Shown here in pieces: positions 11 through 47,779 of a DNA stretch of 64,000 nucleotides (positions are counted from its first letter, which is position 1; the number at the start of each line of letters is the position of its first letter). The stretch covers positions 79,074 through 143,073 of the forward strand of contig JAZKFG010000002.1 of the NCBI GenBank assembly GCA_040386515.1, read 5' to 3'. The position numbers were made by a program, and so were the translations under genes. Below the pieces are notes generated by a model. That model ran no database searches and was not told the DNA's origin. It was given only the letters and a program-made list of their open reading frames with translations. Origin of the DNA: Patescibacteria group bacterium. GTDB taxonomy: Bacteria; Patescibacteriota; Minisyncoccia; Phycocordibacterales; CAIZLB01.

Positions 11-391
11 TTGTTGACAAAGGAATATCATGAGCGATGTAAGCAGGATACTGTGACAGTTCTATATTTCCATAATGTTGATTGTCCAGAATGTAGTAAG
101 CAGTCAATAATACTTGATAAACTTGTTGAGGAATACCCAGAGATTCGAGTGTATTACTTTGACCTAACTACAAATACACCAGCGCTTGATACACTGTCTT
201 CAATTTATAAAATACAACAAGCACCTGCGCTTGTCATAGATGATAAAGCTCATGTTGGATATCAAGATATTGATCAAGTTAAATCTTTTATTCCTGAAAT
301 AAAAGTTTGGGACAAAGAAAAACTTGCATCAAGTACTGCAGCAACAAGCACAGCTACAACATCAACAAAGAAAACAAAGATTAAAAATTAA
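11..391 (+). CDS. Thioredoxin-like protein with a CxxC (CPEC) motif and a low-complexity Ser/Thr/Ala tail. The reading frame is open to the window start, so the 5' end may be truncated or the gene may start at TTG.
   Basis: VLYFHNVDCPECSKQ...APALVIDD matches the thioredoxin-fold active-site layout; no in-frame stop upstream within the window. Confidence 0.45.
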   Translation: MLTKEYHERCKQDTVTVLYFHNVDCPECSKQSIILDKLVEEYPEIRVYYFDLTTNTPALDTLSSIYKIQQAPALVIDDKAHVGYQDIDQVKSFIPEIKVWDKEKLASSTAATSTATTSTKKTKIKN

Positions 392-400
392 TCAAACGCT

Positions 401-1138
401 ATGCATCCAATTACCCAAGCCATTGAACAGTTGACTGATATTTGTGCCAAGTATGGATTTGTACAATATACTGGTCCTGAGATTGAAACAGAATGGCATA
501 ATTTTGACGCACTTCGCGTTGAACCAAACCACCCAGCAAGAGATGCGCAGGATACGTTTTGGCTTGGAGATGAGTACACTGAGTCAGTGGAAGGAGTGGG
601 TACATATAAAATGCTCCCTCGAACGCATACATCAGGTGCGCAAATTCGTCGCATGATCGAAGGTGGAATTGATGCCAACAAAAAACCGCCATTTAAAATC
701 ATCTCTGCTGGGAAAGTTTTTAGAAATGAAGCAACGGACGCAACACATGAGGCAGAATTTTATCAGCTTGAAGGGTTGTGTGTAGGAAAAGATATTTCTA
801 TTGCTGATTTGAAAAATACAATTACTGATATATATAAAGAATTTTTCGGTCCTGAAACGCAGGTGCGATTTCGAGAAAGCTTTTTCCCATTCGTTAAGCC
901 GGGGCTTGAGATAGATATCTTTTGGAAAGATAAATGGCTTGAAGTATCTGGAGGGGGAATGGTACACCCGGAAGTTTTAGAGCATGGATTTTCTTCGCAT
1001 ATGTCAAAAGAGGAAATTGCAGGTTTAACAGGTTTTGCTTTTGGAATGGGAATAGATAGACTAGTTATGCTTAAGTATGGAATCGATGATATTAGAGATA
1101 TGTATTCTGGAGACCTTCGGTTTTCACGATGGTTCTAG
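401..1138 (+). CDS. pheS: Phenylalanine--tRNA ligase alpha subunit (short form lacking the N-terminal coiled coil)
   Basis: Class II aaRS motifs: FRNEATDATHEAEFYQLEG, FFPFVKPGLEIDIFW, GGGMVHPEVL. Confidence 0.85.
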   Translation: MHPITQAIEQLTDICAKYGFVQYTGPEIETEWHNFDALRVEPNHPARDAQDTFWLGDEYTESVEGVGTYKMLPRTHTSGAQIRRMIEGGIDANKKPPFKIISAGKVFRNEATDATHEAEFYQLEGLCVGKDISIADLKNTITDIYKEFFGPETQVRFRESFFPFVKPGLEIDIFWKDKWLEVSGGGMVHPEVLEHGFSSHMSKEEIAGLTGFAFGMGIDRLVMLKYGIDDIRDMYSGDLRFSRWF

Positions 1139-1164
1139 GGTGATATACTTGTAGAAACGTTTCT

Positions 1165-3648
1165 ATGCTCAAAAAAATTACCTTTTTCCTCCCTATAGTG
1201 CTTGCCATTACATTGTGGGGATTTTTTGATGCATACGAGAAAAAGAATTTTGAACCAAATCCAACGTATCCTTGTGTGAGTTATACACCGCATAATATAG
1301 ATCAAAAGGAAAGATATATTGAGTCAGAATTAAGAGCTGATATTTTAAAAATAAAAAGAATTTCTAATTGTATTCGAATATACAGCGTAACTAATGGTTT
1401 AGAAGTGGTACCAAAAATTGCTGAAGAATTAAAAATGGAAGTTATTATCGGTGCCTGGCTTGATAAATTTCCTGAAAAAAACAGAGCAGAATTAATAAAC
1501 GTTATCGCTCTTGCACAAACATACAAGAATATAAGATATGTCGTTGTTGGAAACGAAACAATTTTAATGCATAGAGTGAGACTTGAATATTTGATTGAAG
1601 CTCTTGTTGAAGTAAAAAAACATGTGTCCCAGCCTGTGACAACTGCTGACAATACTTTAAGTTGGGAGAATAATCCTATACTTTTTAAATATGTTGATTT
1701 TGTCGGACTGCATGAATTTCCATATTGGAGAGGGATAACACATACAGAATCTTTGGATGATCTCAAAGAAAAGTTTGAAACAATAATGAAGCTGACCAAT
1801 AAGGAGATAGTATTGCTTGAATTTGGATGGCCAAGCGATGGTATCATGGAACATGGTGCAGTACCTGGTTTAATCCAGCAGAGACAATATTTAAAAAATA
1901 CAATTGATTTCCTTGAATCAAATAATATACATTACAATATTATCGAAGGTATAGACGTGCCATCAAAGCTTAATACAACTGAGGGGCTGACTGGAATACA
2001 TTGGGGCCTTTTAACACAAAATGGGACGAACAAACATATTTTCACAGTATATAGTCTTCTTCAATTTATTCTTTTGTATGTGTTTTTATTTTCTATCATA
2101 TATCTGTATAACAAACCTATCCTTGTGCGCTTTAAGGATAAAATTAAAAGTACAGAATATATATTAATAATAGGTAGCACATGTGTTGCTGTACTTCTTG
2201 TAAAGTTTTACTTATTGTATTTAAGCGTAATGGTTATTTTTCAAATATGTTTTACACTACTTGCGATGTACGGATTTTTTGAATGTTTTCACAAATATAT
2301 ACAATTGCGATATGCAAAGCATGCGTTTATATTTGCTAGTACGTGTCCAATTAACACTACGTATAAGAACAGTTTAGTTTCAGTATTTGTTGCAGGGAAA
2401 AATGAATCCTCAAGCCAAGTAATTAAAACACTTGTAAGTATTTTGCAACAAACGCATGAGTTAATTGAAGTATTGTATATTGATAATAATTCAAAAAATA
2501 AAGATTCATTTAATGAGGTAAGTGAATATTTTTCTAAAAACCTTTTTCCTAAACTAAAGCTTTTCTACGAAGAACGAATTGTCGGCTTCAAGGCAGGTGC
2601 GTTAAATTATCTTTTAGAACAGGCGAATAAAGACTCTCAATTTGTGGCTGTTGTTGATGCCGATTATGTTGTGTATCCTAAGTGGATAGAAACAGCGCTT
2701 AAGTATGCAGATGATCGTACTGGATTTGTGCAGTTTCCTCAAGCATATAGACTATCTGAAGAATCATATAAGAGAAAACAAATTATTGAAATTGGATCTA
2801 CAGTTGAACAGCGATATGTATTTGATATCGTATACCCGATTCGGAGTCTGATAGGAAATGTGGTTCAGAATGGAACAATGGTAATGATTAGTCGCTCATG
2901 TTTAAACAATGGTTGGCCAACATATTCGATCTGCGAGGATGCGGCACTTGGCCTAGAGATGTCTGTCAAAGGTGCTACATCTGTATATGTACCAATTGTA
3001 ATGGGTCTTGGGAGTAATCTGCAAAATTTTACAAATTTGCGAAAGCAGAGAAATAGATGGGTATTTGGAGCAATGCAAATAATTCAAAGAGGCATTTTGC
3101 ATCCAAGGACACTTCTCAATAAAACCTTTTTATTATTCTGCATTGATTGGTTGGGATGGATAATGCATGGATTATATCCAATATTATTAATAAGCTCTTT
3201 GGGGTATGTATGCTTCTTATGGCTTGTGTATCTATATATTGTCGTGAACTGGGTAATGATAGTTGGATTTGTTTTTGTGATTATTTCTCTTGCACTTTTT
3301 ATTTTCACATACTTAAAAACTTATGCAAAAAATAAGCATAAGTTTTTAGAAATATATTCATTGCTTGCTATTGAATTTGGGCTTGTAAATACAATAACAA
3401 AATCAGTTCTTACTGCCTTAATACAATACAAAGCAATGTTTGTAACTACAAGGCAAAATATTGCATTTAAAACTTTTGATGTGTTAAGTATTGCAGTATC
3501 GGCTACTATTGTGTCGTTCGGAATATTTCTATATATTGTTTTAATTTTCCTCGGCATACCTGTTTCGGTAAAACTATTAGGTATTGCTCAACTATCTGTG
3601 GTGTTGTTTCCGCAATTTGCATACCTATGGCTTCGGTTTAAATACTAA
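1165..3648 (+). CDS. Membrane glucan synthase-like fusion: an N-terminal GH17-like glycoside hydrolase domain followed by TM helices and a processive GT2 (cellulose/curdlan synthase-like) domain
   Basis: The GH17 catalytic signatures VVGNET and EFGWPSDG are present. The GT2 part has VDADY (DxD), FVQFPQAY and QRNRW (QxxRW), with a multi-TM C-terminus. Confidence 0.6.
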   Translation: MLKKITFFLPIVLAITLWGFFDAYEKKNFEPNPTYPCVSYTPHNIDQKERYIESELRADILKIKRISNCIRIYSVTNGLEVVPKIAEELKMEVIIGAWLDKFPEKNRAELINVIALAQTYKNIRYVVVGNETILMHRVRLEYLIEALVEVKKHVSQPVTTADNTLSWENNPILFKYVDFVGLHEFPYWRGITHTESLDDLKEKFETIMKLTNKEIVLLEFGWPSDGIMEHGAVPGLIQQRQYLKNTIDFLESNNIHYNIIEGIDVPSKLNTTEGLTGIHWGLLTQNGTNKHIFTVYSLLQFILLYVFLFSIIYLYNKPILVRFKDKIKSTEYILIIGSTCVAVLLVKFYLLYLSVMVIFQICFTLLAMYGFFECFHKYIQLRYAKHAFIFASTCPINTTYKNSLVSVFVAGKNESSSQVIKTLVSILQQTHELIEVLYIDNNSKNKDSFNEVSEYFSKNLFPKLKLFYEERIVGFKAGALNYLLEQANKDSQFVAVVDADYVVYPKWIETALKYADDRTGFVQFPQAYRLSEESYKRKQIIEIGSTVEQRYVFDIVYPIRSLIGNVVQNGTMVMISRSCLNNGWPTYSICEDAALGLEMSVKGATSVYVPIVMGLGSNLQNFTNLRKQRNRWVFGAMQIIQRGILHPRTLLNKTFLLFCIDWLGWIMHGLYPILLISSLGYVCFLWLVYLYIVVNWVMIVGFVFVIISLALFIFTYLKTYAKNKHKFLEIYSLLAIEFGLVNTITKSVLTALIQYKAMFVTTRQNIAFKTFDVLSIAVSATIVSFGIFLYIVLIFLGIPVSVKLLGIAQLSVVLFPQFAYLWLRFKY

Positions 3649-3694
3649 CTGTTTACATATACCGCTCACCATATTTTTATGCTATATATAGCCT

Positions 3695-5734
3695 ATGATA
3701 GTATCCTATAACTGGTTGAAGTCATATATGACAAATCCTGAGGCAATGCCAAGTAAAGAAACGGTTGCCGATCTTTTTACTATGCGAGCTTTTGAGATTG
3801 AAAGTATAGAAGAAAAAAATGGCGATACTCTTTATGATCTTAAGGTTTTGCCAGATAGATCTCCATACGCATATGGTATTCGATATGTTGCACTTGAACT
3901 ATCTCTTTTTGTTCCAGAGCTTAATTTTAACCCATCGTTTTTATCATTTGCAAAAACAAATATTGAGGTTGATTCTGATGCATATGCAGTTTCTTCAAAA
4001 AGAGTACATAATGCTGCCCAAGAATTTTGTCCAGTATATACTTTGACTCTTATTGAAAATATTCACAATAATGCCTCACCGACAAATCATATTGAGGCAC
4101 TTCAGTCACTCAATCAACAGAGTAGGGGAACAATTGTTGATTTAACAAACCTTGTTATGTATGACACAGGGCAGCCTCTTCATGCATTTGACGCAGATAA
4201 GGTTGATGGCGAGATTCGAGTAGAAGTTCTAGATGTTGATACTGAAGTAAAAATACTTGGTGGTAAGAAAGTTGCATTGAAAAAAGGAATGTTAGTTATT
4301 GCTGATGATAAAGATGTTTTGGCTATCGCTGGTGTCAAGGGTTGTGTCAAGGCAGAGGTTACTGCGGAAACAAAAAACATTTATCTGGAGTCTGCTTTGT
4401 TCAACAGGGTAACTGTTCGGAAAACTTCTCGAGCGCTTGATATTATTAATGATTCTTCAAAACGATTTGAGCAAGGTGTGACTCGTGAGCGATCAATACT
4501 CGCAGTGGAGAGATTTAAACAAAAAGTATTGGAACTAATTCCCGAGGCCAATATTCATACAACAGAAACATCTGTTGATGTGCAAAGTATAATTTCGCAA
4601 AAGCACGCTGCTATTGAGGTAGATATTGAACAATGTGTAAAACTTATTGATGCACATGATACATCAATACAAGCAAAACTAATTGCATACATAGAAAACA
4701 CTCTGCCTAAAACTGGAGCTGACGTAGTTAAAAAAAGCGAAGGTAAGTATGTGATTACTGCACCAATGTATAGAACTGATTTGCAGATTGAAGCAGATGT
4801 TGTTGACGAGTTTATTCGTAACATTGGATATGAAGTTATTGTATATAAAAGAACTGATTTAGCATCGAATGTTGAACAGGAGAAAAGATATACGGTTCTT
4901 CACATGGTGAGAAAGTTTATTACAGAAAAAGGTTATACAGAGGTGTTACTTCATACGCTTGTGGATAGTAAAAAAAATGAAAAAGCAGTTCTTCTTGATA
5001 ATGCACTTACGTCAGAACGTGATGCTCTTCGTGCTGAGCTTGCGCCAGAGTTATTGCAGGCGATTGTAAAAAATTATCCTCATTTGGATACAGTTGAGAA
5101 AAAAGCTGTAGAGTTATTTGAAATTGGAATGGTAAACTACGTTGAACAAAAGGAGGGCAAGAAACAAGTGAAGCAAAAGCTACATCTTGCACTCGGAGTA
5201 GGTATGCCAAAATGGCCAAAGAAAACAGATGAGACTTCAACTCCAGCAAATATTTTAAAAGAACTAGCTATCTATCTGCAAATTGATGCAAATGCATTTG
5301 CAGAAGTTGCAGTATTCGAGAATAAAGATAAGAATGCTTTTGTTTCTGAGGCAGATATAACTAATCTAATAGATGATGTTGTATTGCCAAAACATACTGG
5401 AGAACAAAAAGAATACCTGTCACCAAATGCGCGAATCAAAACATTTCCATATAAAAAAGCATCTATATATCCAAGCATGAGTAGAGATATTGCATTCTTT
5501 GTGACGGGGGAGAGTAAAGAACATGTTGATGCAGAAATTCGAACTGTGGCAAAAAAATATGCACTGATTGAAACGGTAACATTGTTTGATGTCTTTACTA
5601 AAGAAGATAAAACTTCATATGGATATAGATTTGTATTTCAATCGTATGAAAAGACTTTAACTGAAGAAGAAGTGAAAACCATTATGGATGAGATTGGAAA
5701 ATTTGTGGATAATAAAGGATGGGTTATTAGATAA
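3695..5734 (+). CDS. pheT: Phenylalanine--tRNA ligase beta subunit
   Basis: MIVSYNWLKSYM N-terminus typical of PheT; B3/4 and B5-like regions and a C-terminal anticodon-binding-like domain. Confidence 0.85.
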   Translation: MIVSYNWLKSYMTNPEAMPSKETVADLFTMRAFEIESIEEKNGDTLYDLKVLPDRSPYAYGIRYVALELSLFVPELNFNPSFLSFAKTNIEVDSDAYAVSSKRVHNAAQEFCPVYTLTLIENIHNNASPTNHIEALQSLNQQSRGTIVDLTNLVMYDTGQPLHAFDADKVDGEIRVEVLDVDTEVKILGGKKVALKKGMLVIADDKDVLAIAGVKGCVKAEVTAETKNIYLESALFNRVTVRKTSRALDIINDSSKRFEQGVTRERSILAVERFKQKVLELIPEANIHTTETSVDVQSIISQKHAAIEVDIEQCVKLIDAHDTSIQAKLIAYIENTLPKTGADVVKKSEGKYVITAPMYRTDLQIEADVVDEFIRNIGYEVIVYKRTDLASNVEQEKRYTVLHMVRKFITEKGYTEVLLHTLVDSKKNEKAVLLDNALTSERDALRAELAPELLQAIVKNYPHLDTVEKKAVELFEIGMVNYVEQKEGKKQVKQKLHLALGVGMPKWPKKTDETSTPANILKELAIYLQIDANAFAEVAVFENKDKNAFVSEADITNLIDDVVLPKHTGEQKEYLSPNARIKTFPYKKASIYPSMSRDIAFFVTGESKEHVDAEIRTVAKKYALIETVTLFDVFTKEDKTSYGYRFVFQSYEKTLTEEEVKTIMDEIGKFVDNKGWVIR

Positions 5735-6005: not shown

Positions 6006-8111
6006 ATGGCAGAAAAAAAAGCAGCAAAATCAACGTATGATGCGAGTTCTATTCAGGTCCTAGAGGGTCTAGAACCGGTTAGAAAGCGACCAGGTATGTA
6101 CATTGGTACAACAGGACCAGACGGACTACACCACCTTATAAACGAGATTTTTGACAACTCACGAGATGAAGCCATGGGTGGTTTTGCTGATCGTGTTGAG
6201 GTTGCACTATTGCCAGGAGGTTACATGCGAGTGGTTGATAACGGACGAGGTATTCCAACTGGAATTCACCCAAAGACAAAAGTATCAGCTCTTGAGACCA
6301 CTATGACAGTGCTTCATGCTGGAGGAAAGTTCGGAGGAGAAGGGTATAAAGTATCAGGAGGACTTCATGGTGTAGGAGCATCTGTAGTAAACGCATTGTC
6401 AGTTCACACAATGGTTACAGTGCATCAAGATGGAGGAAAATTTTTCCAAGAATATGAAATAGGAAAGCCTAAAGCATCTGTTAAGAAAATCGGTACATCA
6501 AAAATTCATGGAACAATTACGATGTGGAAAGCGGATGATACTATTTTTAAGGATGGAATCAACTATGACTGGACAAAGATCATGTCTCACTTGCGACAGC
6601 AGGCATATCTTGTAAAAGGCCTAAAGATTCATGTGCTTGATTTGAGAGGATTGGAAATGTCAGACAAAGAAGTTTTGAAAATGACATCGGATGCTGTCTA
6701 TCTATATGATGAAGATTTGATTGCTCCATCAATGAGTTTCTTCTTTGAAGGAGGACTTCGATCGCTTGTTGCATTTTATAATCAGACACAAAAGGCGGTA
6801 CATAAAAATATTTTCTATGTTGAAAAAGATTATATATCAAACGACAAGGGGGCAGAGGGTGTGTCTGTCGCAGTTGAAGTTGCACTTCAGTATGTTGACG
6901 ATATAAGTTCACGACTCGTTCCTTTTGCGAACAATATTTACAACCCAGAACAAGGAACGCATATTACAGGATTCAAGACTGCGCTTACTCGTACGCTCAA
7001 CACATATGCAAAGAAAAATAACATTGTAAAAGATGATGAATCATTTACAGGAGACGATGTGCTTGAAGGTATATGCGCAGTAGTTTCTGTAAAGTTGCAA
7101 GAGATTCAGTTCGAGGGACAGACAAAAGCAAAGCTTGGATCTACAGAGGCACAATCTGCTGTGAGTTCAGTATTTGGCGAAGCTTTCTCTGCGTTTCTAG
7201 AAGAACATCCAGAGGATGCTAAATCTATCATTAACAAGGCTATTCTTGCGGTACGTGCACGTAAGGCTGCAAAAGCTGCTAAGGACTCTATTATGCGAAA
7301 GGGAGCGCTTGAAGGAATGACCCTTCCTGGAAAGCTTGCTGACTGTCAGAGTAGAAAAGCAGAGGAATCAGAGCTGTTTATTGTAGAGGGAGACTCAGCT
7401 GGTGGAACAGCAGTTATGGGGCGAGACAGAAAGACGCAGGCAGTGTTACCGCTTCGAGGTAAGATTTTGAACATCGAACGAGCTCGACTCGATAAGATTC
7501 TCGCTTCAGAGCAGGTGCGAAACCTTGTGATTGCGCTCGGAACTGCTATTGGAGACATATTTGATATTACTAAGCTTCGATACCATAAAATCATTATCGC
7601 AACCGATGCCGATGTTGACGGTGCCCATATTCGAACACTTATTCTGACCTTGTTGTACAGATACTTTAAGCCGCTTATTGAGGGAGGATTCGTATATATT
7701 GCGCAACCGCCGCTCTATAAGATTACGTATAATAAGACATTGAAATACGTATATTCTGATGACGAGAAAGCTTCATATATGAAGGAGCTTGGCTTTGGTG
7801 AGGAAGAAGCGGAAGTTATAAACGAAGATGGAGAAGAAGGCGAGCAACCTGCAGAAGAGGGGGAAGAAGAGGTGGAAAAAAATACGACAAAGAAGCGACC
7901 ATCTATACAGCGATATAAAGGTCTTGGAGAAATGAACGCTGAAGAGCTTGGAGAGACTACAATGGATGTAACAAAGCGAGTGCTCAAGCAAGTGCATATT
8001 CCTGATGCAGTTGAAGCAGACAGAGTGATTGACGTATTGATGGGTACTGACGTTGCGTCACGAAAAAGTTTCATTCAGACAAATGCTCGCACAGCTAGAT
8101 TGGATGTGTAA
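6006..8111 (+). CDS. gyrB: DNA gyrase subunit B
   Basis: GHKL ATPase N-terminus (LEGLEPVRKRPGMYIGTT), TOPRIM (EGDSAGG) and the C-terminal QRYKGLGEM motif. An acidic E-rich insertion sits near the C-terminus. No gyrA is adjacent. Confidence 0.9.
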   Translation: MAEKKAAKSTYDASSIQVLEGLEPVRKRPGMYIGTTGPDGLHHLINEIFDNSRDEAMGGFADRVEVALLPGGYMRVVDNGRGIPTGIHPKTKVSALETTMTVLHAGGKFGGEGYKVSGGLHGVGASVVNALSVHTMVTVHQDGGKFFQEYEIGKPKASVKKIGTSKIHGTITMWKADDTIFKDGINYDWTKIMSHLRQQAYLVKGLKIHVLDLRGLEMSDKEVLKMTSDAVYLYDEDLIAPSMSFFFEGGLRSLVAFYNQTQKAVHKNIFYVEKDYISNDKGAEGVSVAVEVALQYVDDISSRLVPFANNIYNPEQGTHITGFKTALTRTLNTYAKKNNIVKDDESFTGDDVLEGICAVVSVKLQEIQFEGQTKAKLGSTEAQSAVSSVFGEAFSAFLEEHPEDAKSIINKAILAVRARKAAKAAKDSIMRKGALEGMTLPGKLADCQSRKAEESELFIVEGDSAGGTAVMGRDRKTQAVLPLRGKILNIERARLDKILASEQVRNLVIALGTAIGDIFDITKLRYHKIIIATDADVDGAHIRTLILTLLYRYFKPLIEGGFVYIAQPPLYKITYNKTLKYVYSDDEKASYMKELGFGEEEAEVINEDGEEGEQPAEEGEEEVEKNTTKKRPSIQRYKGLGEMNAEELGETTMDVTKRVLKQVHIPDAVEADRVIDVLMGTDVASRKSFIQTNARTARLDV

Positions 8112-8122: not shown

Positions 8123-10441
8123 ATGAGCTTAGGTAAAACTTGCGCAATACTCTTATTATTTTTTTGTGTAATTAGTAATATCCATACGCAGGCTGCAGAA
8201 TTTGTTCCAAAAGACATACGTCTTGTTAATCCTGCAACGAGTTTTAAAGCAGGAAGTGTGCAGGATATTGGCTTAGTGCGATCTGATATTAAAGGGCGAG
8301 CAAATCTTATATTCGATTATGGAGTTGCTCGAGTTATTACTGATGAGACTATTACTTCATATGAAATCATAAGCACAGAAACTTCTGCAAATACAAATCA
8401 GATTAAGTTTCCAGTCACTATTCCAAATACTATTCCTGAATATGCCACATCGACATATGTTATTTTTTTGAAATCTTATGCAATTCATCGGCCCGATACA
8501 CAAAACTTTTTTGTCACTAAGCCTTTTGTTATTGAGAGAAATGATTTGCCGTACATACATATTAAAAATATTAATCTTCTGCAAAGCAATAATACTCGTG
8601 CAGGACTTGAAGATGGTCCAATAATATATAACCCTGATTCAGCAGCATCTGAAGCCCAATCTATTAATACTTCTCTAGAAGTCTCATTTCAATCTGATCA
8701 AGAAACAATTTTAAAACCAGTTATTAAGTTTAACAAATTGAGATCAAATGCAAAGCTAGAAGATTTCACGCCTGCAGAAATAAGTGTAAGAAAGGGAATT
8801 ACAAATGTCACAATTCCTTTACCTGTATTTAATTATGAGCCGGGTGTGTATTTTGGGGAATTATTGTTACATAATAATCTACTGCCTGTAAAAGTTGAAT
8901 TTATATACATTATTGCTGGAGAAACAGCTTCTGTGGGATTAGTTACTGCAAGTCCGGAAGGCTTATTTACATTTAATATTTTTGGAACACCTGCCGATAT
9001 ACATAATACTACTGCCACAACTACGAAAGAGATTAAAACGTTTAAAACCACTTTCATGTTTAGGGGCAAGGAAGTATTTGCTACTACATCTGAAAGTATT
9101 GATTTTAATGCTGGGTCAACAACTATAGCGCTTCCTAAAAATGTTCAGAGTGTAGATTCTGTATGGGTTGAAGTAATTTCAAATACAACAAATAAAGTAT
9201 TATTCGCAGACACAAAGGGTATATCATTTTCTCGAGATACAGAGCCGAATCGATGGTATTTATATTACATATTAATACTTTGTATTATTATCGTCTGTGC
9301 CTTTAAGCAACATAAAACAAAATTTATTATAGCTCTACTATTATTATGTGCTCTCATTATTACTCAGAGAGTATACGGTGATATGTATAAGCCAGACGAG
9401 TTTATGACCACAAATAATGAATTTAGTGATCGTGTTTCTTTATATATAAATCAAAATATACAGCCACTTATTCAAACATGTGGAGAGCCTTTCAGTCTTT
9501 TATATGGTGTGTACTATACTGCTGCAGCAAGTGCATTTAACGGCAATACTGCTGGATTTTCTGTCCTAAGTGCAGGAGATGCAGATGCAAAACGTACTGA
9601 GGCAATAAGCGGAGACAAAATGTATGATATTAATAAAAGTCATGATAAGTGGTATCACATTTCTAACTGGTTTAAATATACAAGTCCAACGGTATTAACA
9701 ACTAATAAAACATTATATATAACCGTTGATTCAAACTCAGGAACTGCACGATATAAAATGCCTATTACTATTGGAGAGTGTTATGCCTGTACAAATGCAA
9801 CCAGTACGTCTAACATCCCTAATTTCCAAAAATTTAATAGAAATTATTATTATTCAACAAGTACGCAACAGCTGTATTATAGAAATATAAGCGATGGAGA
9901 TAGGCCATCAGAATGTAAAATAGATTTATGCACAAACACTGAATTTTCAGAAGAACAATATCCGGAAACACTGACGTGGTCACCACTTCCGGCAACTGGC
10001 TCTACTGATCCAGACAGATATGCATGTGTACCTGCAAAAGTTAATTGTGCCTGTGATAAGCGCAATATGGTATGTAAAAATGATACGACAGGGACAAGTA
10101 CTATTACTGTGAATGATACTGCTTGTAAATTCCAAGCTTTCTGTACTGCAACTGAAAACTCAATCAATGGTGGATGGGTAACCTTCGATGCCTATAATAA
10201 ATTGGGAAAAATCTCGTATAGCCAAAAAGGCAAAGGACTTCCACTTGTAACTGAAACCTCAACCACATCTACAAGTACACCCCAAAATGCCGCATTCGAC
10301 CAAAATGGAGGATACATGATGATTCAAATTCCTGTTGGAGGTAAAATTGTAACCAATACATTAACTGATAGTTTTGACGGATCAGTCTCTACAGCATCAT
10401 GTAAATTGATTGGTAACAGCACTACTACACCAGCACTTTAA
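8123..10441 (+). CDS. Large secreted/surface protein. It has a signal peptide, an internal TM segment followed by a basic patch (resembling a sorting-signal tail), and then a Cys-rich C-terminal domain.
   Basis: N-terminal signal peptide MSLGKTCAILLLFFCVISNIHTQA; mid-protein hydrophobic stretch LYYILILCIIIVCAFKQHKTK; C-terminal domain with multiple Cys. Confidence 0.5.
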   Translation: MSLGKTCAILLLFFCVISNIHTQAAEFVPKDIRLVNPATSFKAGSVQDIGLVRSDIKGRANLIFDYGVARVITDETITSYEIISTETSANTNQIKFPVTIPNTIPEYATSTYVIFLKSYAIHRPDTQNFFVTKPFVIERNDLPYIHIKNINLLQSNNTRAGLEDGPIIYNPDSAASEAQSINTSLEVSFQSDQETILKPVIKFNKLRSNAKLEDFTPAEISVRKGITNVTIPLPVFNYEPGVYFGELLLHNNLLPVKVEFIYIIAGETASVGLVTASPEGLFTFNIFGTPADIHNTTATTTKEIKTFKTTFMFRGKEVFATTSESIDFNAGSTTIALPKNVQSVDSVWVEVISNTTNKVLFADTKGISFSRDTEPNRWYLYYILILCIIIVCAFKQHKTKFIIALLLLCALIITQRVYGDMYKPDEFMTTNNEFSDRVSLYINQNIQPLIQTCGEPFSLLYGVYYTAAASAFNGNTAGFSVLSAGDADAKRTEAISGDKMYDINKSHDKWYHISNWFKYTSPTVLTTNKTLYITVDSNSGTARYKMPITIGECYACTNATSTSNIPNFQKFNRNYYYSTSTQQLYYRNISDGDRPSECKIDLCTNTEFSEEQYPETLTWSPLPATGSTDPDRYACVPAKVNCACDKRNMVCKNDTTGTSTITVNDTACKFQAFCTATENSINGGWVTFDAYNKLGKISYSQKGKGLPLVTETSTTSTSTPQNAAFDQNGGYMMIQIPVGGKIVTNTLTDSFDGSVSTASCKLIGNSTTTPAL

Positions 10442-10442: not shown

Positions 10443-11762
10443 TTAGTTTACCTGAACGTATGTCTGGTACGTGTTGTCACTCTCATTTGATTCACTGATA
10501 TTATTTTGAGTATCAGTTACAAACATAATTCTATTACTTCCTCGACTTAGATTATAGCTATCGATTTCGTATTGAATAGTTGTCTCACTTCCTGATGATA
10601 ACCCAGATTCAGATCCTGGAACATAGTCTCGAGAATTTCCATTCGCATCAATTACTGAAATACGATTTGCCCAAGAGTTTGTGAAATAACTTCCATTATT
10701 TCTTACTTTGGCTCGAATAGCCAGTCTGTCGCCATAGTTTAAATAACTCTGTGCATAAAATGTACCATTTGTAATCTTTCCAGTTTCGAAAGAAATAATA
10801 TACAAGTTAGGCAGGTAAGAGTTATATGTAGTGTTGTTGTAATTACTGCAATATGTATTGTAGTTTGCACTATTTACATATCCAATTGATGAATAATAGG
10901 CACAGTTATAACTTACACCATTGGTATTATTGTTGTAATTATAATTAGTACCATAATTTGTATAAGGATTAGTATATGAGTTTGAATAATAATTATTCTG
11001 ATATACGTTTCTAAGTTCTGCAGAAAGTGTGTTATCACCCTCATTTGATTCGGCGATTTGATTATATGGATCTAGATTGATTCGTACAATCGGAGTTCCT
11101 TGTGAAAGATCAACGCCACTAAATCGTGCTTCGACAGTATATGTACTTTCTCCAGGAATACTATCAAGACTATTTAAAATCTTCACTCTATCTTCCGTAT
11201 CTATTGCAGGCATATCAACTCGTAGTGACCAAGGTCCTGTTGGAGTATCTTGTTCGTTTATAACAAGGAATCGAACTGAAATAGTATCTTGTGTATTAAA
11301 TGAATTAGCCGTCACATATTGTCCATTGGCATTAATGATTCCAATTGAAGAAAGACTTACGTGTAAGTTTTTTCTACCAGTCAGAACAGGGGCAGAAGGG
11401 TAATACGTGTATGAAGGAGTAGGTGAATATGTAACTGTTTTAGGTGCAGTTTGTGTCTTAGTTCCTGTCTTATTTGGAGTAGCCTCAAGAATAACTATAT
11501 CTCCTTTTGTTGTATATACACCATTTAGACCTGAATCAGTCACAGGAGCAGGGTTGGCTACCTGCTGAGGATATGTACTTGTAGCAGTAGTTGTTGCTAC
11601 GTTTGTTTGTCGGTCCGTTATAGCTACAGTGGCAGAGGCAAGCTGATTAATCCCTTTAGGTATAAGCTTAAATAGCGTCACACTTAAAAAGACTAGTATG
11701 CCGATTGCTATAGTTATAATGAGAAATCGAATGATTGTGCGTAATATTTCCATAATGCCCAT
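10443..11762 (-). CDS. Membrane-anchored surface protein, Asn/Tyr/Thr-rich, with two CARDB-like repeats
   Basis: N-terminal TM anchor; repeated E.NE.DN motifs (IAESNEGDNT, ISESNESDNT) typical of CARDB adhesion domains. Confidence 0.45.
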   Translation of the reverse strand: MGIMEILRTIIRFLIITIAIGILVFLSVTLFKLIPKGINQLASATVAITDRQTNVATTTATSTYPQQVANPAPVTDSGLNGVYTTKGDIVILEATPNKTGTKTQTAPKTVTYSPTPSYTYYPSAPVLTGRKNLHVSLSSIGIINANGQYVTANSFNTQDTISVRFLVINEQDTPTGPWSLRVDMPAIDTEDRVKILNSLDSIPGESTYTVEARFSGVDLSQGTPIVRINLDPYNQIAESNEGDNTLSAELRNVYQNNYYSNSYTNPYTNYGTNYNYNNNTNGVSYNCAYYSSIGYVNSANYNTYCSNYNNTTYNSYLPNLYIISFETGKITNGTFYAQSYLNYGDRLAIRAKVRNNGSYFTNSWANRISVIDANGNSRDYVPGSESGLSSGSETTIQYEIDSYNLSRGSNRIMFVTDTQNNISESNESDNTYQTYVQVN

Positions 11763-11820
11763 ACTATATACATATATTATGCAAATGTCAATAGGTAATC
11801 TATAGTATATTTAAGCTCAT

Positions 11821-12528
11821 ATGGCTCTTGATTTATTTACAAAAGAGGAGATTTGGATGGCAAAAAAGATTGCTAAATACGGTTTTATCCTATTAATTGC
11901 AACAGGTATTATTACCAGTCTAATCCGTGTCACTTTAGTGTATATAACTGATGGTCAAACAGGATTGCAAAACCTCATAAAAAAAGAAGCTAAGACTGAG
12001 CAAACAAATGCTCCTGAACAAAACCTAAAAGATACACTTCTGGTCAAAAAGGAAACTCAGGCACTCCCTACTCAAGTTGTTGCTGGAAAAGTTGAGGCGC
12101 CACTCTCTCTTGAGGTTCCGACTCTCGGCATAAAAACAGTAATTGAATCTCCTGAGACTACGAACGTGGACACTTTAGATAGTGCCCTCAGTAGATCTGC
12201 CGTGTACTATCAAGGTTCAGGAACACCAGGAAGTGGAAATATGCTTATTTTCGGTCACAGCACAGGATTTAAAATTGTACGTAATCAGGCCTATAAAGTA
12301 TTTAATAATCTGAAGCTTGCCAAAGTTGGTGCATACATTTATGTAAAAACTGCCAGCGGAACACATACGTATAAAGTTCGAGGCGTAAAGCATGTAAGTA
12401 AATATGACACATGGATTAATTTCCAAAGTAATACGTCTATGCTTACGCTTGCAACATGTGATAGTTTTGGAAAATCATCAGACCGATGGATTTTGGAGGC
12501 AGATTATGTTGGATTTACGGGGAATTAG
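11821..12528 (+). CDS. Sortase family transpeptidase
   Basis: N-terminal TM segment, conserved His (LIFGHST) and catalytic TLxTC (LTLATCD) followed by a conserved Arg (SSDRW). Confidence 0.7.
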   Translation: MALDLFTKEEIWMAKKIAKYGFILLIATGIITSLIRVTLVYITDGQTGLQNLIKKEAKTEQTNAPEQNLKDTLLVKKETQALPTQVVAGKVEAPLSLEVPTLGIKTVIESPETTNVDTLDSALSRSAVYYQGSGTPGSGNMLIFGHSTGFKIVRNQAYKVFNNLKLAKVGAYIYVKTASGTHTYKVRGVKHVSKYDTWINFQSNTSMLTLATCDSFGKSSDRWILEADYVGFTGN

Positions 12529-14696: not shown

Positions 14697-15458
14697 ATGA
14701 ACAAAATAGTTGCTTTTGATCTCGACGGGACGCTCGCTGAAAGTAAACAAGCCATAACACACGAAGTGGCAACTATTCTTTATTCTCTATCACTCAAGAC
14801 AAAAGTTATTATTATCTCAGGCGGATCGTATGAACAATTCACAAAACAATTTGTTCCAGGAATAGTAAACGCTGCAAAAGTAAAAGGCAACACTCGAGGA
14901 CTTGAAAACGTTATTCTCATGCCAACAAATGGAAGCAAAAGATACGAGTATGATGTTGATATGCATATGTGGAAAGAAACACAAATGTATCCATTTAATG
15001 AAGAAATTAAAAAGAAAGTAATGCTTGAATTGAATTCAATTATTGCTGGAAATTTTGATGTACCCCGAAATCACTATGGAGAGTATATTGAAGATAGAGT
15101 GACGCAGATTACATTCTCAGCTCTAGGACAAACCGCACCACTTGAAGAAAAAAGTATATGGGACCCAACTCGATCAAAGAGATTGAAAATAAAAGAAGTT
15201 CTTGAGAAAGCAATTCCTGAAATACAAGCACATGTTGGAGGTATGACTTCTATTGATATTCTTCCAAAAAATTTTAACAAAGCTACAGGACTTCTTAGAT
15301 ATTTATCAGAAGAAAAATTATCAATACACGATATGCTATTTATTGGTGATGCAATTTTCGAAGGAGGGAATGATTACTCACCGCTTCAAGCCGGAATAGA
15401 AACTAAAAAAACATCAGGTCCAAAAGAAACAGTGGAGATCATGCAAACATTGCTTTAA
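14697..15458 (+). CDS. HAD-IIB hydrolase, eukaryote-type phosphomannomutase (PMM) family
   Basis: VAFDLDGTL HAD motif I; C-terminal FIGDAIFEGGNDYSP resembles the PMM motif F/GDKT..GGNDYEI. Confidence 0.6.
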   Translation: MNKIVAFDLDGTLAESKQAITHEVATILYSLSLKTKVIIISGGSYEQFTKQFVPGIVNAAKVKGNTRGLENVILMPTNGSKRYEYDVDMHMWKETQMYPFNEEIKKKVMLELNSIIAGNFDVPRNHYGEYIEDRVTQITFSALGQTAPLEEKSIWDPTRSKRLKIKEVLEKAIPEIQAHVGGMTSIDILPKNFNKATGLLRYLSEEKLSIHDMLFIGDAIFEGGNDYSPLQAGIETKKTSGPKETVEIMQTLL

Positions 15459-15487
15459 GTCGAATAATAAAGGTAAAATGAATACTA

Positions 15488-15847
15488 ATGACAGACATAC
15501 GGAAAGACATATACCAAGAAAGTCGACCATGGGGTAATTTCCGTCGATTTACTCTTAATAGTCCATCAACAGTTAAAATAATTGAAGTTTTGCCAGGGCA
15601 AAGTTTAAGTCTTCAAACTCACACAGCTCGAGGTGAATTTTGGCGTATACTTTCTGGAACTGGAACTGTCGAAATAGATGAAAAGCCAATACGTGCAAAA
15701 AAGGGCGATGAATTTTTTATTGAAACAGGAATGAAGCATAGAGCATTTACAGAAACTGATACATTGGAAATATTAGAAATCGCAGTAGGAGAGTTTGATG
15801 AAAATGACATAACTCGCTTTGAAGATAAATACGGAAGGACTAAGTAA
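15488..15847 (+). CDS. Cupin-family mannose-6-phosphate isomerase-like protein (COG0662 type)
   Basis: RPWGNF...SLQTHTARGEFWRILSGTGTVEI matches the cupin PMI/GMP C-terminal domain signature. Confidence 0.65.
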   Translation: MTDIRKDIYQESRPWGNFRRFTLNSPSTVKIIEVLPGQSLSLQTHTARGEFWRILSGTGTVEIDEKPIRAKKGDEFFIETGMKHRAFTETDTLEILEIAVGEFDENDITRFEDKYGRTK

Positions 15848-15861
15848 CATTTACACAAATC

Positions 15862-16968
15862 ATGTTTCAATTATCAAGAGTAGGGAATAAACCAGTATTA
15901 CAGCCTGATAAAAATATCTTTTGGGAAACAGAAGGTGTTTTTAATGCAGGTGTAACTGAGTTTGAGGGAAAGAATGGAAAAGAAATACTCATGCTCTATA
16001 GAGCAGTTGGGGAAAAGGATGCGTATGTATCACATTTTGGATTGGCCACAAGTAAAGATGGTATTACATTTGAAAGAGTAACAGATAAGCCAGTATTCGG
16101 TCCTTCAAAGCCGTATGACTTATGGGCAACTGAAGATCCTCGTATTACAAAAATAGAAGATGAATATTATATTACGTATGTTGCAGTGGCAGATAGAATT
16201 ATGGATCATGGTCGAAGTATTGAAAGAGAAATTCCTCTTGAAACTCGTACAGCCCTTTTGAAAACAAAAGACTTTTTAACATATGAACATTTAGGAATTA
16301 TTACACCTCCAGGTGCTGATGATAAGGATACTGTGTTATTTCCAAAAAAAATTCCATGCATTGATCCATCTGGAAATATGCGTATGCGATATGGAATGCT
16401 TCATCGACCGCATCGATGGTCAAAAGATTGGCTACATGGACCTTTTGCTGCTAAAGTTCCTATTGAACTTCCTTTTACAATTGATGATATGCCGCAAAAG
16501 CCAAGTGTATGGATTGCGTGGTCTGATGATTTAATTCATTGGGATATGCACACGCCTCTCATGAAGCCGGCACAAGTGAGTGCTGCTAAAAACGGTCCAG
16601 GTCTGCCACCAATTGAAACACCAGATGGATGGCTGGTTATTTATCATCATGTGACTGAAGATCCTTTAACAAAACGCCTTACCTATACTGCTCGAGCAGC
16701 ACTGTTTGAGCTTGAAAATCCTACAAAATATGTAGGAAAATTGGCATATAATATATTATCCCCTGAGGTATCCTTTGAAACGGAGCATGGAGCAGCTATT
16801 GTTTTCCCGACTGGAGGATTTGTAAAAGATGATATACTATATGTATATTATGGCTGCTCTGATACATATATAGCCTTGGCAACAGGGTCATTATCAGAGC
16901 TTATTGCAGAATTAAAAAAAGCTGGTCCTCCGGCTCCTGTAACAACTATTGCCCCTATTATCCGCTAA
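15862..16968 (+). CDS. Glycoside hydrolase family 130-like protein (beta-mannoside phosphorylase family)
   Basis: FNAGV..LYRAVGE..GLATSKDGITFERV..EDPRITKIEDEYYITY pattern typical of GH130. Confidence 0.6.
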   Translation: MFQLSRVGNKPVLQPDKNIFWETEGVFNAGVTEFEGKNGKEILMLYRAVGEKDAYVSHFGLATSKDGITFERVTDKPVFGPSKPYDLWATEDPRITKIEDEYYITYVAVADRIMDHGRSIEREIPLETRTALLKTKDFLTYEHLGIITPPGADDKDTVLFPKKIPCIDPSGNMRMRYGMLHRPHRWSKDWLHGPFAAKVPIELPFTIDDMPQKPSVWIAWSDDLIHWDMHTPLMKPAQVSAAKNGPGLPPIETPDGWLVIYHHVTEDPLTKRLTYTARAALFELENPTKYVGKLAYNILSPEVSFETEHGAAIVFPTGGFVKDDILYVYYGCSDTYIALATGSLSELIAELKKAGPPAPVTTIAPIIR

Positions 16969-16982
16969 TCAATACATCACAC

Positions 16983-19277
16983 ATGCCGCCACACCAACAA
17001 AAAACTAAAAATGATGCAATGTGGATTGTCTTCATGACAACTTTTCCACCTCGAGAATGTGGACTTGCAACATTTACAGCAGACTTGATAGATAGTTTTG
17101 ATAAGCTATTTTCTCCTCAAGAGGAAACTAAGGTTATTGCTATGGAGACTGAGTCTTCGGAAAATGCAGTAACTGGCGTTCCTGTTACAGACCCAAAAGT
17201 TATTTTTAGGATTTCTGAAAATAAAAAAGAAGATTATGTTGCTGCTGCGACGTATGTAAATAACTTGCCCCAAGTGAAAGTTGTCTCAATTCAACACGAG
17301 TTTGGCATTTACGGACAAAATGACGGAGAAAATGTTTTAGTTTTTTTAGAGGAAGTTAAAAAGCCGGTTGCAGTTACATTTCATACTGTGCTTCCTCGAC
17401 CATCGGAACATATTTTGCATATTGTGCAAGAGATTGGGAAAAAAGCAGAGCATATGATTGTTATGACTCAAAATTCTAAACTACTTCTTGAGACAGTCTA
17501 TGCAATTCCTTCAGAAAAAATTAAAGTTATTGCGCATGGTATTCATGCGTTGCCATACACTGAGTCACCAAGCATAAAGAAAATGCTGGACGCCAAGAAA
17601 ATGCCAAAGCTCGGAGAGCTTTCTGGAAAAAAAGTTATTTCTACATTTGGATTATTAAACAGAGGAAAGGGAATTGAGTTTGCAATCGATGCTTTGCCTG
17701 CAATCGTGAAAGAATTTCCTGAAACTCAATATCTTATTCTTGGAGCAACGCATCCAGTAGTATTTCGAAGAGAAGGGTCGGTATATTTAAATCAACTAAG
17801 ACAAAAAGCAGAAGCGCTCGGTGTACTTGAACATATTACATTTTACGATTCATATATAGAAACAAAGGATTTGCTGACATTTTTACAAGCGACTGATATA
17901 TATCTTTCACTTTCACAAAATCCTGATCAAGCAGTGTCAGGAACACTTACATATGCCCTTGGAGCAGGGAGAACAGTTGTATCAACGCCTTTTATGCAGG
18001 CTAAAGAAGTGATCACAGATGAGGTTGGTAGGCTTATTGAATTTAATGATAGCTCTACAATTGCCGATGCTGTAATTACGTTATTTAAAGATCAGAACGA
18101 TTTGAAAAATAAAAGTAAGGCGGCTTATTTTAGAACGAGAGGAATGGTTTGGCCAAATATTGCTCTTTCGTATATGCAAGAATTTATATCAGTATCGCCT
18201 GAACTTGCACTCAAAGAAAAAGCTTTGCCTCCATTAGACTTTTCGCACATTAAACATATGACGGATGATTTTGCCATGTTTCAGTTTGCAGTTTTTACTG
18301 AGCCTTCACCTGAGTCAGGATATACGCTTGATGACAATGCGAGGTCTCTTGTATGCATGGTCTGGGCAACTGATGAGCTTGGGAAACATGAAAGTGAAGT
18401 AAAATTGGCGGATACATATTTATCATTCCTAGAAACAGCTTCGCTTCCTGGAGGATTTGTAAATTATTATGACGTTGATCGAATAGAAAATCATGCAAAA
18501 AATTCTACAGAAAATCTTGAAGATTCAAATGCGCGAGCGCTTTGGGCAATTGCTGAAGTGTATGCAAGTTCAATAGGGGATGCAATAGAGGTACGGGCAT
18601 TCAATCTGTTCATGCATCAATTTGCGCATCATACTCGGGTGACATCACCGCGTGCTGCTGCATTCTATATCAAGGCTTTTTCTGTTTGGCTCTCTAAAGG
18701 GAAAGCAACTGAAGATGTGAAAGCACTTTTGATAGGACACATGACATATTATGCAGATTTTCTTATGTCTATTCTGCATGATAATGAGACATCAGATTGG
18801 ATTTGGTTTGAAAGTGCTATGACATATTCAAATGCAATTTTGCCTGAAGCGCTTTTCTTGGCATATACATGGACAAAATACGAACATTATCTCGCAGCTG
18901 CTAAACGAACTATGGATTTCTTAATACTACATTCATTCGACAATGATATGTGTGTGCCCATAGGACAAGCTGGATGGTTCAAGAGAGGTGGTGTAAAGCA
19001 ACCTTTTGATCAACAGCCGGAAGAAGTATCCGCACTCGTTCTCGGGCTGTACACTGCCTTTACCGTTTCAAAAGATGAAAAATATCAGACGTATATGAAC
19101 AGTGCCTTTGACTGGTTCCTTGGAAAGAATATTATTGGCCAAGTTATATATTCTCATGCTACGGGAGGGTGTTATGATGGGCTTGGAAATACCTATATAA
19201 ACCTTAATCAAGGGGCAGAATCAACCGTTTCATATCTTTTGGCTCGTCTTATAATGGAAAAATCGAAAAAAATATAA
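16983..19277 (+). CDS. Bifunctional-looking protein: an N-terminal GT4 glycosyltransferase (about 400 aa) fused to a C-terminal domain of unknown function (about 350 aa), possibly an alpha/alpha-toroid glycosidase-like fold
   Basis: GT4 hallmarks are present (the FPPRECGLATF start and an E-x7-E-like region around ALGAGRTVVSTPF). The C-terminal half has no recognisable motif. Confidence 0.5.
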   Translation: MPPHQQKTKNDAMWIVFMTTFPPRECGLATFTADLIDSFDKLFSPQEETKVIAMETESSENAVTGVPVTDPKVIFRISENKKEDYVAAATYVNNLPQVKVVSIQHEFGIYGQNDGENVLVFLEEVKKPVAVTFHTVLPRPSEHILHIVQEIGKKAEHMIVMTQNSKLLLETVYAIPSEKIKVIAHGIHALPYTESPSIKKMLDAKKMPKLGELSGKKVISTFGLLNRGKGIEFAIDALPAIVKEFPETQYLILGATHPVVFRREGSVYLNQLRQKAEALGVLEHITFYDSYIETKDLLTFLQATDIYLSLSQNPDQAVSGTLTYALGAGRTVVSTPFMQAKEVITDEVGRLIEFNDSSTIADAVITLFKDQNDLKNKSKAAYFRTRGMVWPNIALSYMQEFISVSPELALKEKALPPLDFSHIKHMTDDFAMFQFAVFTEPSPESGYTLDDNARSLVCMVWATDELGKHESEVKLADTYLSFLETASLPGGFVNYYDVDRIENHAKNSTENLEDSNARALWAIAEVYASSIGDAIEVRAFNLFMHQFAHHTRVTSPRAAAFYIKAFSVWLSKGKATEDVKALLIGHMTYYADFLMSILHDNETSDWIWFESAMTYSNAILPEALFLAYTWTKYEHYLAAAKRTMDFLILHSFDNDMCVPIGQAGWFKRGGVKQPFDQQPEEVSALVLGLYTAFTVSKDEKYQTYMNSAFDWFLGKNIIGQVIYSHATGGCYDGLGNTYINLNQGAESTVSYLLARLIMEKSKKI

Positions 19278-46943: not shown

Positions 46944-47023
46944 TTCGTTTAAGGATTTTGAAGTGTCGCGGGACATCAATGTATACAAAGGAACGCAAAT
47001 TAATGTATACTGTTTTAAACACT

Positions 47024-47779
47024 ATGAAAATATTCGTCATCAACCTACGAAGAAGAATGGACAGAAGAATCAGCATGGAAACACAGCTTAATCGGGAAAA
47101 GCTGCCTTTTGAGATTATTCCGGCACTCGAACTTAAAGATATTCAGAAAAGCGACGTGAGTGGTGTATTCAACAAAGGAACCATGTATCAGCCAAACGAA
47201 ATCGCGTGTTCAGCCTCTCATCGATTGATATACGCGCGCATGATTAAGGACAACATTCCAAAGGCTATGATATTCGAGGATGACGTGGTTATGCCTGTTG
47301 ATTTTAGTAATATTGTTGAAGCGTTGGATAATCATACGTATGATGACATTGATTGGCTTCAAGTAGATTATCCCAGCGTTGGATTTGGCTTTATACGACA
47401 ATGGACGAAGGTATACGTAGGGTTTTTTGAATTCAAAATAACCTATATGCTCAAGTTCTTCGTTAAGTTTCCGATTGTGGTTGCAGTATCGCTATACGAG
47501 CAGTTTCTGCTCTGGTTTGTTGGACAAACTTTTCAGTCACGCATTCCAACGGTAGTTCGGTTTTACCGTGACGTGTATTTTGCGAGTTGTTATATAGTGA
47601 CACTAAGCGCAGCAAAGAAGTTGCTTGCAGCCCAGACACCGCTTATGTACACGGCAGACAAGCTCCCAAACATGCTTAAAAAAGAAGGGTTTAAAATGCG
47701 GATTTGCATCCCTCGATTTACGTATCAAGACAATCAGTCGTTCGGCTCAGACCTAACTCCTGTTATTCCTCGTAAGTAA
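47024..47779 (+). CDS. Family 25 glycosyltransferase (LPS/LOS beta-1,4-galactosyltransferase-like), paralog 1
   Basis: MKIFVINLRRRMDRR start characteristic of GT25; about 65% identical to 49616..50362. Confidence 0.6.
   Translation: MKIFVINLRRRMDRRISMETQLNREKLPFEIIPALELKDIQKSDVSGVFNKGTMYQPNEIACSASHRLIYARMIKDNIPKAMIFEDDVVMPVDFSNIVEALDNHTYDDIDWLQVDYPSVGFGFIRQWTKVYVGFFEFKITYMLKFFVKFPIVVAVSLYEQFLLWFVGQTFQSRIPTVVRFYRDVYFASCYIVTLSAAKKLLAAQTPLMYTADKLPNMLKKEGFKMRICIPRFTYQDNQSFGSDLTPVIPRK

Follow-up and report, generated by a model that had tools for sequence, protein, structure and literature searches.

The genes for the two subunits of phenylalanyl-tRNA synthetase, pheS and pheT, lie next to each other almost universally, and their canonical operon consists of adjacent, co-transcribed genes. 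In the stretch of 64,000 nucleotides (nt) of Patescibacteria group bacterium DNA analysed here (the window, whose coordinates are used below), the pair is split by a gene encoding a protein of 827 amino acids (aa), which raises the question of what this gene specifies and how it came to lie there. We consider it likely that its product is a self-contained membrane glucan synthase of the NdvB/'Orphan' type, and that the gene represents a single-gene insertion of ~2.5 kb after the pheS stop codon, confined to this lineage.

The protein encoded between pheS and pheT

Five genes occupy the first 8 kb of the window, all on the + strand and in this order: a thioredoxin-like open reading frame (ORF), pheS, the 827-aa ORF, pheT and gyrB. 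The genes and the two catalytic domains, the latter located with the help of an AlphaFold2 (AF2) model, are the following:

11..391, + strand: thioredoxin-like ORF, with weak Pfam thioredoxin-family matches; conserved neighbor upstream of pheS
401..1138, + strand: pheS, phenylalanyl-tRNA synthetase alpha subunit, 245 aa (Pfam tRNA-synt_2d, E 1e-82)
1165..3648, + strand: the probably inserted gene, predicted to encode an 827-aa NdvB/'Orphan'-type GH17-GT2 membrane glucan synthase (homology, AF2 model, fold matches)
1267..2034, + strand: predicted extracytoplasmic GH17-type TIM-barrel domain, aa ~35-290 (phmmer to 4WTP, Foldseek to 4wtr)
2377..3099, + strand: predicted cytoplasmic processive GT2 domain, aa ~405-645 (three Pfam GT2 models)
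3695..5734, + strand: pheT, phenylalanyl-tRNA synthetase beta subunit, 679 aa (Pfam B3_4, 2e-46; B5, CLM, FDX-ACB)
6006..8111, + strand: gyrB (Pfam DNA_gyraseB, Toprim, HATPase_c), which anchors the syntenic block

The arrangement of pheS, the 827-aa gene and pheT in one orientation agrees with an earlier interpretation made from the letters alone (the sequence-only reading). A spacer of 26 nt separates the pheS stop codon from the intervening gene, and 46 nt lie between the stop codon of the latter and pheT. The distance from pheS to pheT is 2,556 bp and is occupied by one unrelated gene, so that the two synthetase genes are not adjacent here. This layout is an observation of gene order, to which a test against chance is inapplicable.

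The 827-aa protein is identical to one listed at NCBI as 'MAG: glycosyltransferase [Patescibacteria group bacterium]', encoded on a 292-kb contig. More than 1000 homologues were found, most of them proteobacterial, of ~870-900 aa and with both PF00332 (GH17) and GT2 matches; among those carrying an organism name, the ones outside Patescibacteria come only from Proteobacteria. The nearest homologues, P0002 and P0003, are distant, none exceeding 38% BLASTP identity in 5.8 billion proteins (39-43% in MAFFT alignments). By its sequence the protein is a full-length, collinear member of the known NdvB/'Orphan' family, with an ordinary domain order, as signal sequence, GH17, membrane helices, GT2 and membrane helices succeed one another in one polypeptide. 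For example, residues 17-762 align collinearly with the proteobacterial GH17-GT2 protein P0031 of Zavarzinia (781 columns, E 9e-93). The sequence-only reading had supposed that NdvB proteins carry these domains in the opposite order, which is incorrect: the pseudomonad NdvB/'Orphan' proteins also have GH17 followed by GT2 (PMC10237404), in line with the P0031 alignment.

In the AF2 model (mean pLDDT 75.7, ~90 in both catalytic domains), an N-terminal helix precedes a TIM-barrel-like domain, and after three long helices come a GT-A domain and a bundle of helices at the C-terminus; predicted membrane helices flank the GT2 domain at aa 295-391 and 647-826. The barrel is similar to 4WTP of Rhizomucor miehei over residues 56-283 (phmmer E 2.5e-14), and Foldseek matched the modelled domain to 4wtr (RmBgt17A) with a TMt of 0.82 and a root-mean-square deviation of 2.9. 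The proton donor Glu131 lies in VGNE (aa 128-131; codon at nt 1555-1557) and the nucleophile Glu219 in EFGWPS (aa 219-224; codon at nt 1819-1821), where F replaces the T/S/V of the family motif; Glu219 aligns with the residue mutated in 4WTR. N130, E131, E219, G221, W222 and P223 are invariant in a 30-sequence family alignment. A profile of the family matched 4WTP (1.3e-44), the GH17 protein 6FCG (1.7e-20), the plant protein CJP38 (6JMS, 2.9e-7), which we take to be a GH17 member, and BcsA (2.4e-35 to 3e-35). The GH17-like character attributed to the N-terminus by the sequence-only reading is thus upheld by the 4WTP similarity at the levels of sequence, fold and profile, and by the conserved pair of glutamates.

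The GT2 domain passed three Pfam models (Glycos_transf_2, 5e-18; Glyco_tranf_2_3, 6e-14; Glyco_trans_2_3, 1e-11), which, together with the helices on both sides, agrees with the processive membrane GT2 proposed earlier. Its motifs D498/D500 (DxD, in DADY at aa 498), E591/D592 (ED) and QRNRW (aa 628-632) are present, as are all the others quoted by the sequence-only reading, and D498/D500, E591/D592 and Q628/R629/R631/W632 are invariant in the same 30-sequence alignment. BcsA (4hg6) was matched at E 3.5e-6 with the single sequence, and Foldseek gave BcsA at E 2e-16 and hyaluronan synthase at E 1e-13. NCBIfam returned weak CelA and NodC matches, and no PilZ domain was found in the 827-aa protein with Pfam.

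By analogy with NdvB, the GT2 domain would polymerise a beta-glucan in the cytoplasm, possibly a beta-1,3-glucan made from uridine diphosphate glucose (UDP-glucose), and the nascent chain would exit by way of a channel that the membrane helices of the protein itself provide. A signal-anchor helix would hold the GH17 barrel outside the membrane, where it may cut the chain by means of Glu131 and Glu219 and pass it on to an acceptor, so that the product would be cyclic, branched or elongated. The characterised members of the family build a beta-1,3 chain from UDP-glucose, and homology suggests the same substrate and linkage here.

Three points weigh against this interpretation. First, neither the whole protein nor its isolated N-terminal domain at E<=10 matched PF00332. 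This failure says little, because the Pfam model is marginal even in the three members from Proteobacteria that were scanned (27.6-32.4 bits, around a gathering threshold of 28.2 bits; the relative P0003 scores 20.1 bits), and PF00332 was rejected as a decisive GH17 test since these members themselves reach only the threshold. Of the domain matches expected by the sequence-only reading, Glyco_tranf_2_3 was therefore recovered and Glyco_hydro_17 formally failed its threshold, yet the 4WTP match shows the domain to be of GH17 type. Second, identity to characterised members of the family is ~28-30%, so that both the beta-1,3 linkage and a possible cyclisation are extrapolations. Third, a sortase and a CARDB surface protein are encoded in the window. 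The sortase hints at a host without an outer membrane, to which the proteobacterial role in periplasmic cyclic glucan would not be simply transferable. Patescibacteria appear to lack an outer membrane and are often attached to host cells. If the outer membrane is indeed lacking, a released or surface-bound glucan would be more plausible than a cyclic glucan retained in a periplasm.

It is also conceivable, though unlikely, that the enzyme makes another polymer (cellulose-like, chitin-like or a mixed-linkage glucan) and that its N-terminal domain is a plain trimming or releasing hydrolase. The best solved relatives of the GT2 domain are cellulose and hyaluronan synthases, and the Patescibacterial proteins, ~28% identical to NdvB-type proteins in the present case, form a clade of their own in a neighbor-joining (NJ) tree; the CelA and NodC matches, for their part, are only weak ones. 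However, the collinear GH17-GT2 homology is far stronger than the similarity to BcsA, and the PilZ domain is missing. Moreover, GH17 enzymes act on beta-1,3-glucans (CAZy), and the closest solved GH17 structure is that of a beta-1,3-glucanosyltransferase. These features favor the assignment to the NdvB/'Orphan' synthases.

Origin of the gene at the pheS-pheT junction

Related loci (L handles) were assembled from 80 genome loci retrieved by a pheT alignment search, four metagenome loci near the closest pheT relatives, and the loci around the synthase homologues; a genome scan with a single pheT sequence had returned no loci, and an alignment query was needed. The block of thioredoxin-like gene, pheS, pheT and gyrB is conserved throughout. 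A complete pheS-pheT junction was available in 82 related Paceibacteria loci, to which all junction counts refer, and none of them (0/82) carries a GH17-GT2 gene between pheS and pheT. The gap between the two genes is at most 100 bp in 64, 100-300 bp in four and more than 300 bp in 14 of these loci, with a maximum of 1.6 kb. In the closest relatives, whose pheS and gyrB are 78-86% and 88-93% identical to those of the window, it measures 26-64 bp (L084, L004, L085, L086, L087) or 751 bp (L005), and no synthase homologue was found in them within the fetched regions. In an NJ tree based on pheS, pheT and gyrB (1,574 columns), L004 and L086 form the sister group of the window in 197 of 200 bootstraps, and L085 and L087 branch outside. 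Because the sister loci lack the gene, as do the two outside, parsimony favors one gain, in the lineage of the window. The insertion proposed by the sequence-only reading is therefore supported by the synteny of related genomes.

The junctions themselves display several short sequence features:

1115..1123, + strand: left copy of the 9-nt direct repeat CTTCGGTTT, coding for Leu-Arg-Phe near the pheS 3' end (repeat search)
1121..1149, + strand: promoter-like site, hexamers TTTTCA and TATACT 17 nt apart, the second preceded by TG (consensus scan)
3631..3639, + strand: right copy of CTTCGGTTT, coding for Leu-Arg-Phe near the 3' end of the 827-aa gene (repeat search)
3636..3648, + strand: the 13 nt GTTTAAATACTAA, running from the end of codon 824 through the final three codons to the stop of the 827-aa gene (identity to the L004 spacer)
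3675..3697, + strand: the 23-nt motif TTTTATGCTATATATAGCCTATG, ending in the pheT start codon (identity in the window, L004 and L086)

The repeat CTTCGGTTT occurs only twice in the 64-kb window, both strands counted, against 0.43 occurrences expected, with one copy at each end of the insert, and may represent microhomology from a recombination event. The 13 nt GTTTAAATACTAA are identical to part of the 37-nt pheS-pheT spacer of L004 and probably mark the right-hand boundary of the insertion. Further downstream, TTTTATGCTATATATAGCCTATG is also found directly before pheT in L004 and L086, there following pheS directly, and the window stretch between GTTTAAATACTAA and TTTTATGCTATATATAGCCTATG resembles the L086 spacer. 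These similarities suggest an ancestral spacer of ~60 nt, in which new DNA would have entered right after the pheS stop codon, bringing 26 nt of its own upstream sequence, with the ORF running a few codons into the old spacer. As L004 retains the complete 3' end of pheS ahead of the 13-mer, an origin of its spacer by deletion between the 9-nt repeats was rejected.

Alternatively, the arrangement may be ancestral, the synthase gene having resided at the pheS-pheT junction, or at another place in the pheST-gyrB block, before its loss in the relatives and its retention or relocation in the window lineage. We regard this as rather improbable. The 13 nt shared by the L004 spacer and the end of the gene could then be a deletion remnant, and the 827-aa protein ends where P0002 and P0003 end, so that its last codons could be native; this interpretation of the match was rated lower on species-tree parsimony and kept as a rival, because the absence of the gene from L004, L086, L085 and L087 alike is explained by one gain more simply than by two or more losses. 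Moreover, L086 retains a different part of the spacer, which is also present downstream of the gene in the window and fits the splitting of an ancestral ~60-nt spacer. The occurrence of homologues in the same syntenic block in L001, L018, L088 and L090, and the native-like base composition of the gene, would agree with an old resident, but the 38% ceiling on BLASTP identity in the 5.8 billion proteins means that no orthologue is known from near relatives.

Other observations also speak against a lineage-specific insertion. Around the insert there are no integrase or transposase genes, and no long direct or inverted repeats. The G + C content at third codon positions (GC3) of the gene is 0.26, compared with a window mean of 0.272 (z -0.2), giving no sign of recent foreign origin. 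Homologues are present elsewhere in the block formed by pheST, gyrB, CARDB and sortase genes, namely between pheT and gyrB in L001 and just after gyrB in L018, L088 and L090, which is compatible with an old resident gene moved locally. Finally, the sequence of the 827-aa protein was found in only one assembly in the 5.8-billion-protein collection. This last point could also suggest that the gene order is an assembly artefact of a metagenome-assembled contig, as one contig in one assembly carries the protein. However, such an artefact is extremely improbable, since both junctions read through cleanly, the downstream spacer keeps homology to the pheS-pheT spacers of relatives exactly where an insertion would leave it, and the ORF is intact with all its catalytic residues and has a GC3 typical of the window.

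On balance, insertion in the window lineage remains the reading that we prefer. The synthase gene may be an old, often lost and locally shuffled resident of the block, or lineages may exchange genes preferentially at this block. The Patescibacterial homologues form their own clade in the NJ tree, and the CARDB gene is syntenic with gyrB in L001, L018 and L088, as is the sortase gene in L088. In L001, P0002, the closest homologue, is flanked by ORFs of ~117-132 aa without Pfam match, three upstream and three downstream (regions of small ORFs at L001 5525-6727 and 9707-10854); the three upstream are paralogues with an N-terminal hydrophobic helix. A second synthase paralogue, P0003, is located elsewhere in the genome of L001, adjoining a large cadherin/PG-binding surface protein.

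Expression and genomic surroundings

No terminator-like hairpins were found between pheS, the inserted gene and pheT. Given this and the short spacers, read-through transcription from pheS into pheT is plausible. The promoter-like site at 1121..1149, whose end lies 16 nt ahead of the first codon of the inserted gene, is a positional hint only; promoter-like consensus matches showed no enrichment over shuffled sequence across the scan. The motif TTTTATGCTATATATAGCCTATG may be pheT's own promoter or translation signal, and as it is kept in the window, pheT may not depend on read-through. Within it, the stretch TGCTATATA is similar to an extended -10 element; if it acted as one, pheT would have a very short leader or none.

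The pheS-pheT junction also carries other DNA (gap >100 bp) in 18 of the 82 relatives, some of it on the opposite strand. The following contents were identified:

L013: DUF3800
L015: insertion sequence-type (rve) integrase, on the opposite strand
L044: DUF1653
L060: fumarase-class lyase
L076: CYTH plus NDK genes
L081: GIY-YIG gene

L005 and L083 are also among the loci with an interrupted junction. Because unrelated genes interrupt the junction in relatives, pheT in these genomes cannot always depend on transcription from pheS. The sequence-only reading had argued that insertion into an essential operon would tie the expression of the synthase to growth; this argument is weakened by the upstream motif that pheT retains and by the interrupted junctions, including those with genes in opposite orientation.

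In one subclade of relatives, the pheS-pheT spacer contains a conserved non-coding element of ~170 nt that is absent from the window:

L007 9735-9905
L011 9812-9975
L013 2448-2612
L014 9747-9910
L015 7971-8135

It has three predicted hairpins, with compensatory changes in three of 47 pairs, and gave no relevant match to Rfam at gathering and E-value thresholds; it could be an undescribed RNA or leader. Its interpretation as a T-box was dropped, as the putative Phe-codon stretch lacks conservation and is paired in the consensus fold. At the corresponding position, L012 and L017 have another conserved element in common.

Both synthetase subunits are short. PheS (TIGR00468 score 250.7 bits, cutoff 237) covers profile positions 71-319 of 324 and lacks the usual ~70 N-terminal residues. 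In PheT (TIGR00472, 320 bits) the best stretch begins at profile position 159 of 798, and Pfam gave no match to an N-terminal tRNA-binding domain. Its N-terminus MIVSYNWL is kept in relatives, and most full-length relatives found have a PheT of ~630-730 aa, similar to the 679 aa of the window, so the short subunits look like a clade-wide reduction. The thioredoxin-like ORF is probably the C-terminal half of a ~241-aa protein truncated by the window start: in L085-L087 the gene immediately preceding pheS encodes 238-241 aa, with whose C-terminal half the ORF shares 67-76% identity, and the window begins inside the counterpart of this gene. In these relatives the region upstream of pheS (L085 2032-5203, L086 2077-5207, L087 1972-5199) comprises an Acyl_transf_3 gene, a chitin-synthase-like GT2 gene and the gene of the ~241-aa protein; the chitin-synthase-like processive GT2 upstream of pheS in the closest relatives is 416 aa long. 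On the other side, most related loci have gyrB after pheT, in the same orientation.

Downstream of gyrB in the window, positions 8123-10441 encode a 772-aa protein with a predicted signal sequence and a membrane segment but without Pfam match, followed at 10443-12528 by the CARDB-domain protein (- strand) and then the sortase. Further on, a sugar-metabolism cluster at 14697-19277 includes a phosphomannomutase-like HAD protein, a GH130 protein (mannoside phosphorylase family) and a 764-aa GT1-family glycosyltransferase. Positions 37257-39770 encode an 837-aa protein that may mark prophage or phage-derived surface protein content, as its Peptidase_S74 (endosialidase chaperone) domain is characteristic of tail fibres or spikes of phages. 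Finally, two adjacent genes on opposite strands at 46958-48588 (273 and 268 aa) have a GC3 of 0.43-0.44 against a mean of 0.27 (z ~3) and are candidates for recent foreign origin.

A broader proposal is that Patescibacteria use the NdvB-type enzyme for a surface or wall beta-1,3-glucan, and that its placement among pheST, gyrB, CARDB and sortase genes was selected for growth-linked expression. We consider this quite doubtful. If it were true, the glucan would be surface- or wall-associated, built and remodelled outside the cell instead of serving as a periplasmic osmoprotectant, in parallel with fungal wall remodelling by GH17 enzymes, and growth-linked expression in this genome would extend to transcription through tRNA-synthetase genes.

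The results extend the NdvB/'Orphan' GH17-GT2 family to Patescibacteria by a divergent member in an unusual host and position, where the accepted role in periplasmic cyclic glucan is not obviously applicable; to our knowledge, the surface polymers of these episymbiotic bacteria are almost unstudied. The adjacency of pheS and pheT is relaxed across this bacterial class, which bears on subunit balance in very small genomes, and the split by a synthase gene is a local quirk of one lineage. In the literature we found no report of GH17-GT2 proteins in Patescibacteria, nor of pheS/pheT separation in bacteria of the Candidate Phyla Radiation. Neither the family extension nor the relaxed adjacency overturns current understanding, and GenBank already lists the protein under the generic name 'glycosyltransferase'.

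Comparison with known enzymes and operons

The pseudomonad NdvB/'Orphan' proteins lack PilZ; their signal peptide is followed by a periplasmic GH17 domain (~37-306), a membrane region and then a GT2 domain in the cytoplasm (PMC10237404). Their family motifs are VG(S/N)E for the proton donor and E(T/S)GWP(T/S) for the nucleophile, and P. aeruginosa PA1163 and P. fluorescens SBW25 Orphan are proposed cyclic beta-(1,3)-glucan synthases (PMC10237404). The 827-aa protein resembles them in architecture, domain order, structural templates (4WTP and BcsA), proposed mechanism and absence of PilZ (PMC10237404), and shares the VGNE, ExGWPS, DxD, ED and Q(R/Q)xRW motifs. However, identity is ~27-30%, and the window protein is ~40-70 aa shorter, lacks a PF00332 match and belongs to the separate Patescibacterial clade. 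Its host probably has no outer membrane and would therefore offer no true periplasm for a cyclic glucan, and its gene lies inside pheST instead of beside dapE.

Bgt17A of Rhizomucor miehei (4WTP/4WTR), a GH17 beta-1,3-glucanosyltransferase, is similar to the N-terminal domain in sequence, fold and both catalytic glutamates, but is a free fungal enzyme, whereas the window domain is fused to a synthase and predicted to be tethered to the membrane. BcsA (4HG6/4P00) is likewise a processive, membrane-embedded GT2 with QxxRW and a channel-forming helix bundle, a channel that the window protein would form by analogy; identity in the structural alignment is ~16%, and the window protein differs by the lack of PilZ and of a nearby BcsB partner and by its extra N-terminal GH17 domain. 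With the canonical pheS-pheT operon, the locus shares order and strand, and its neighbors, the thioredoxin-like gene, pheS, pheT and gyrB, are those conserved in the 80 related loci.

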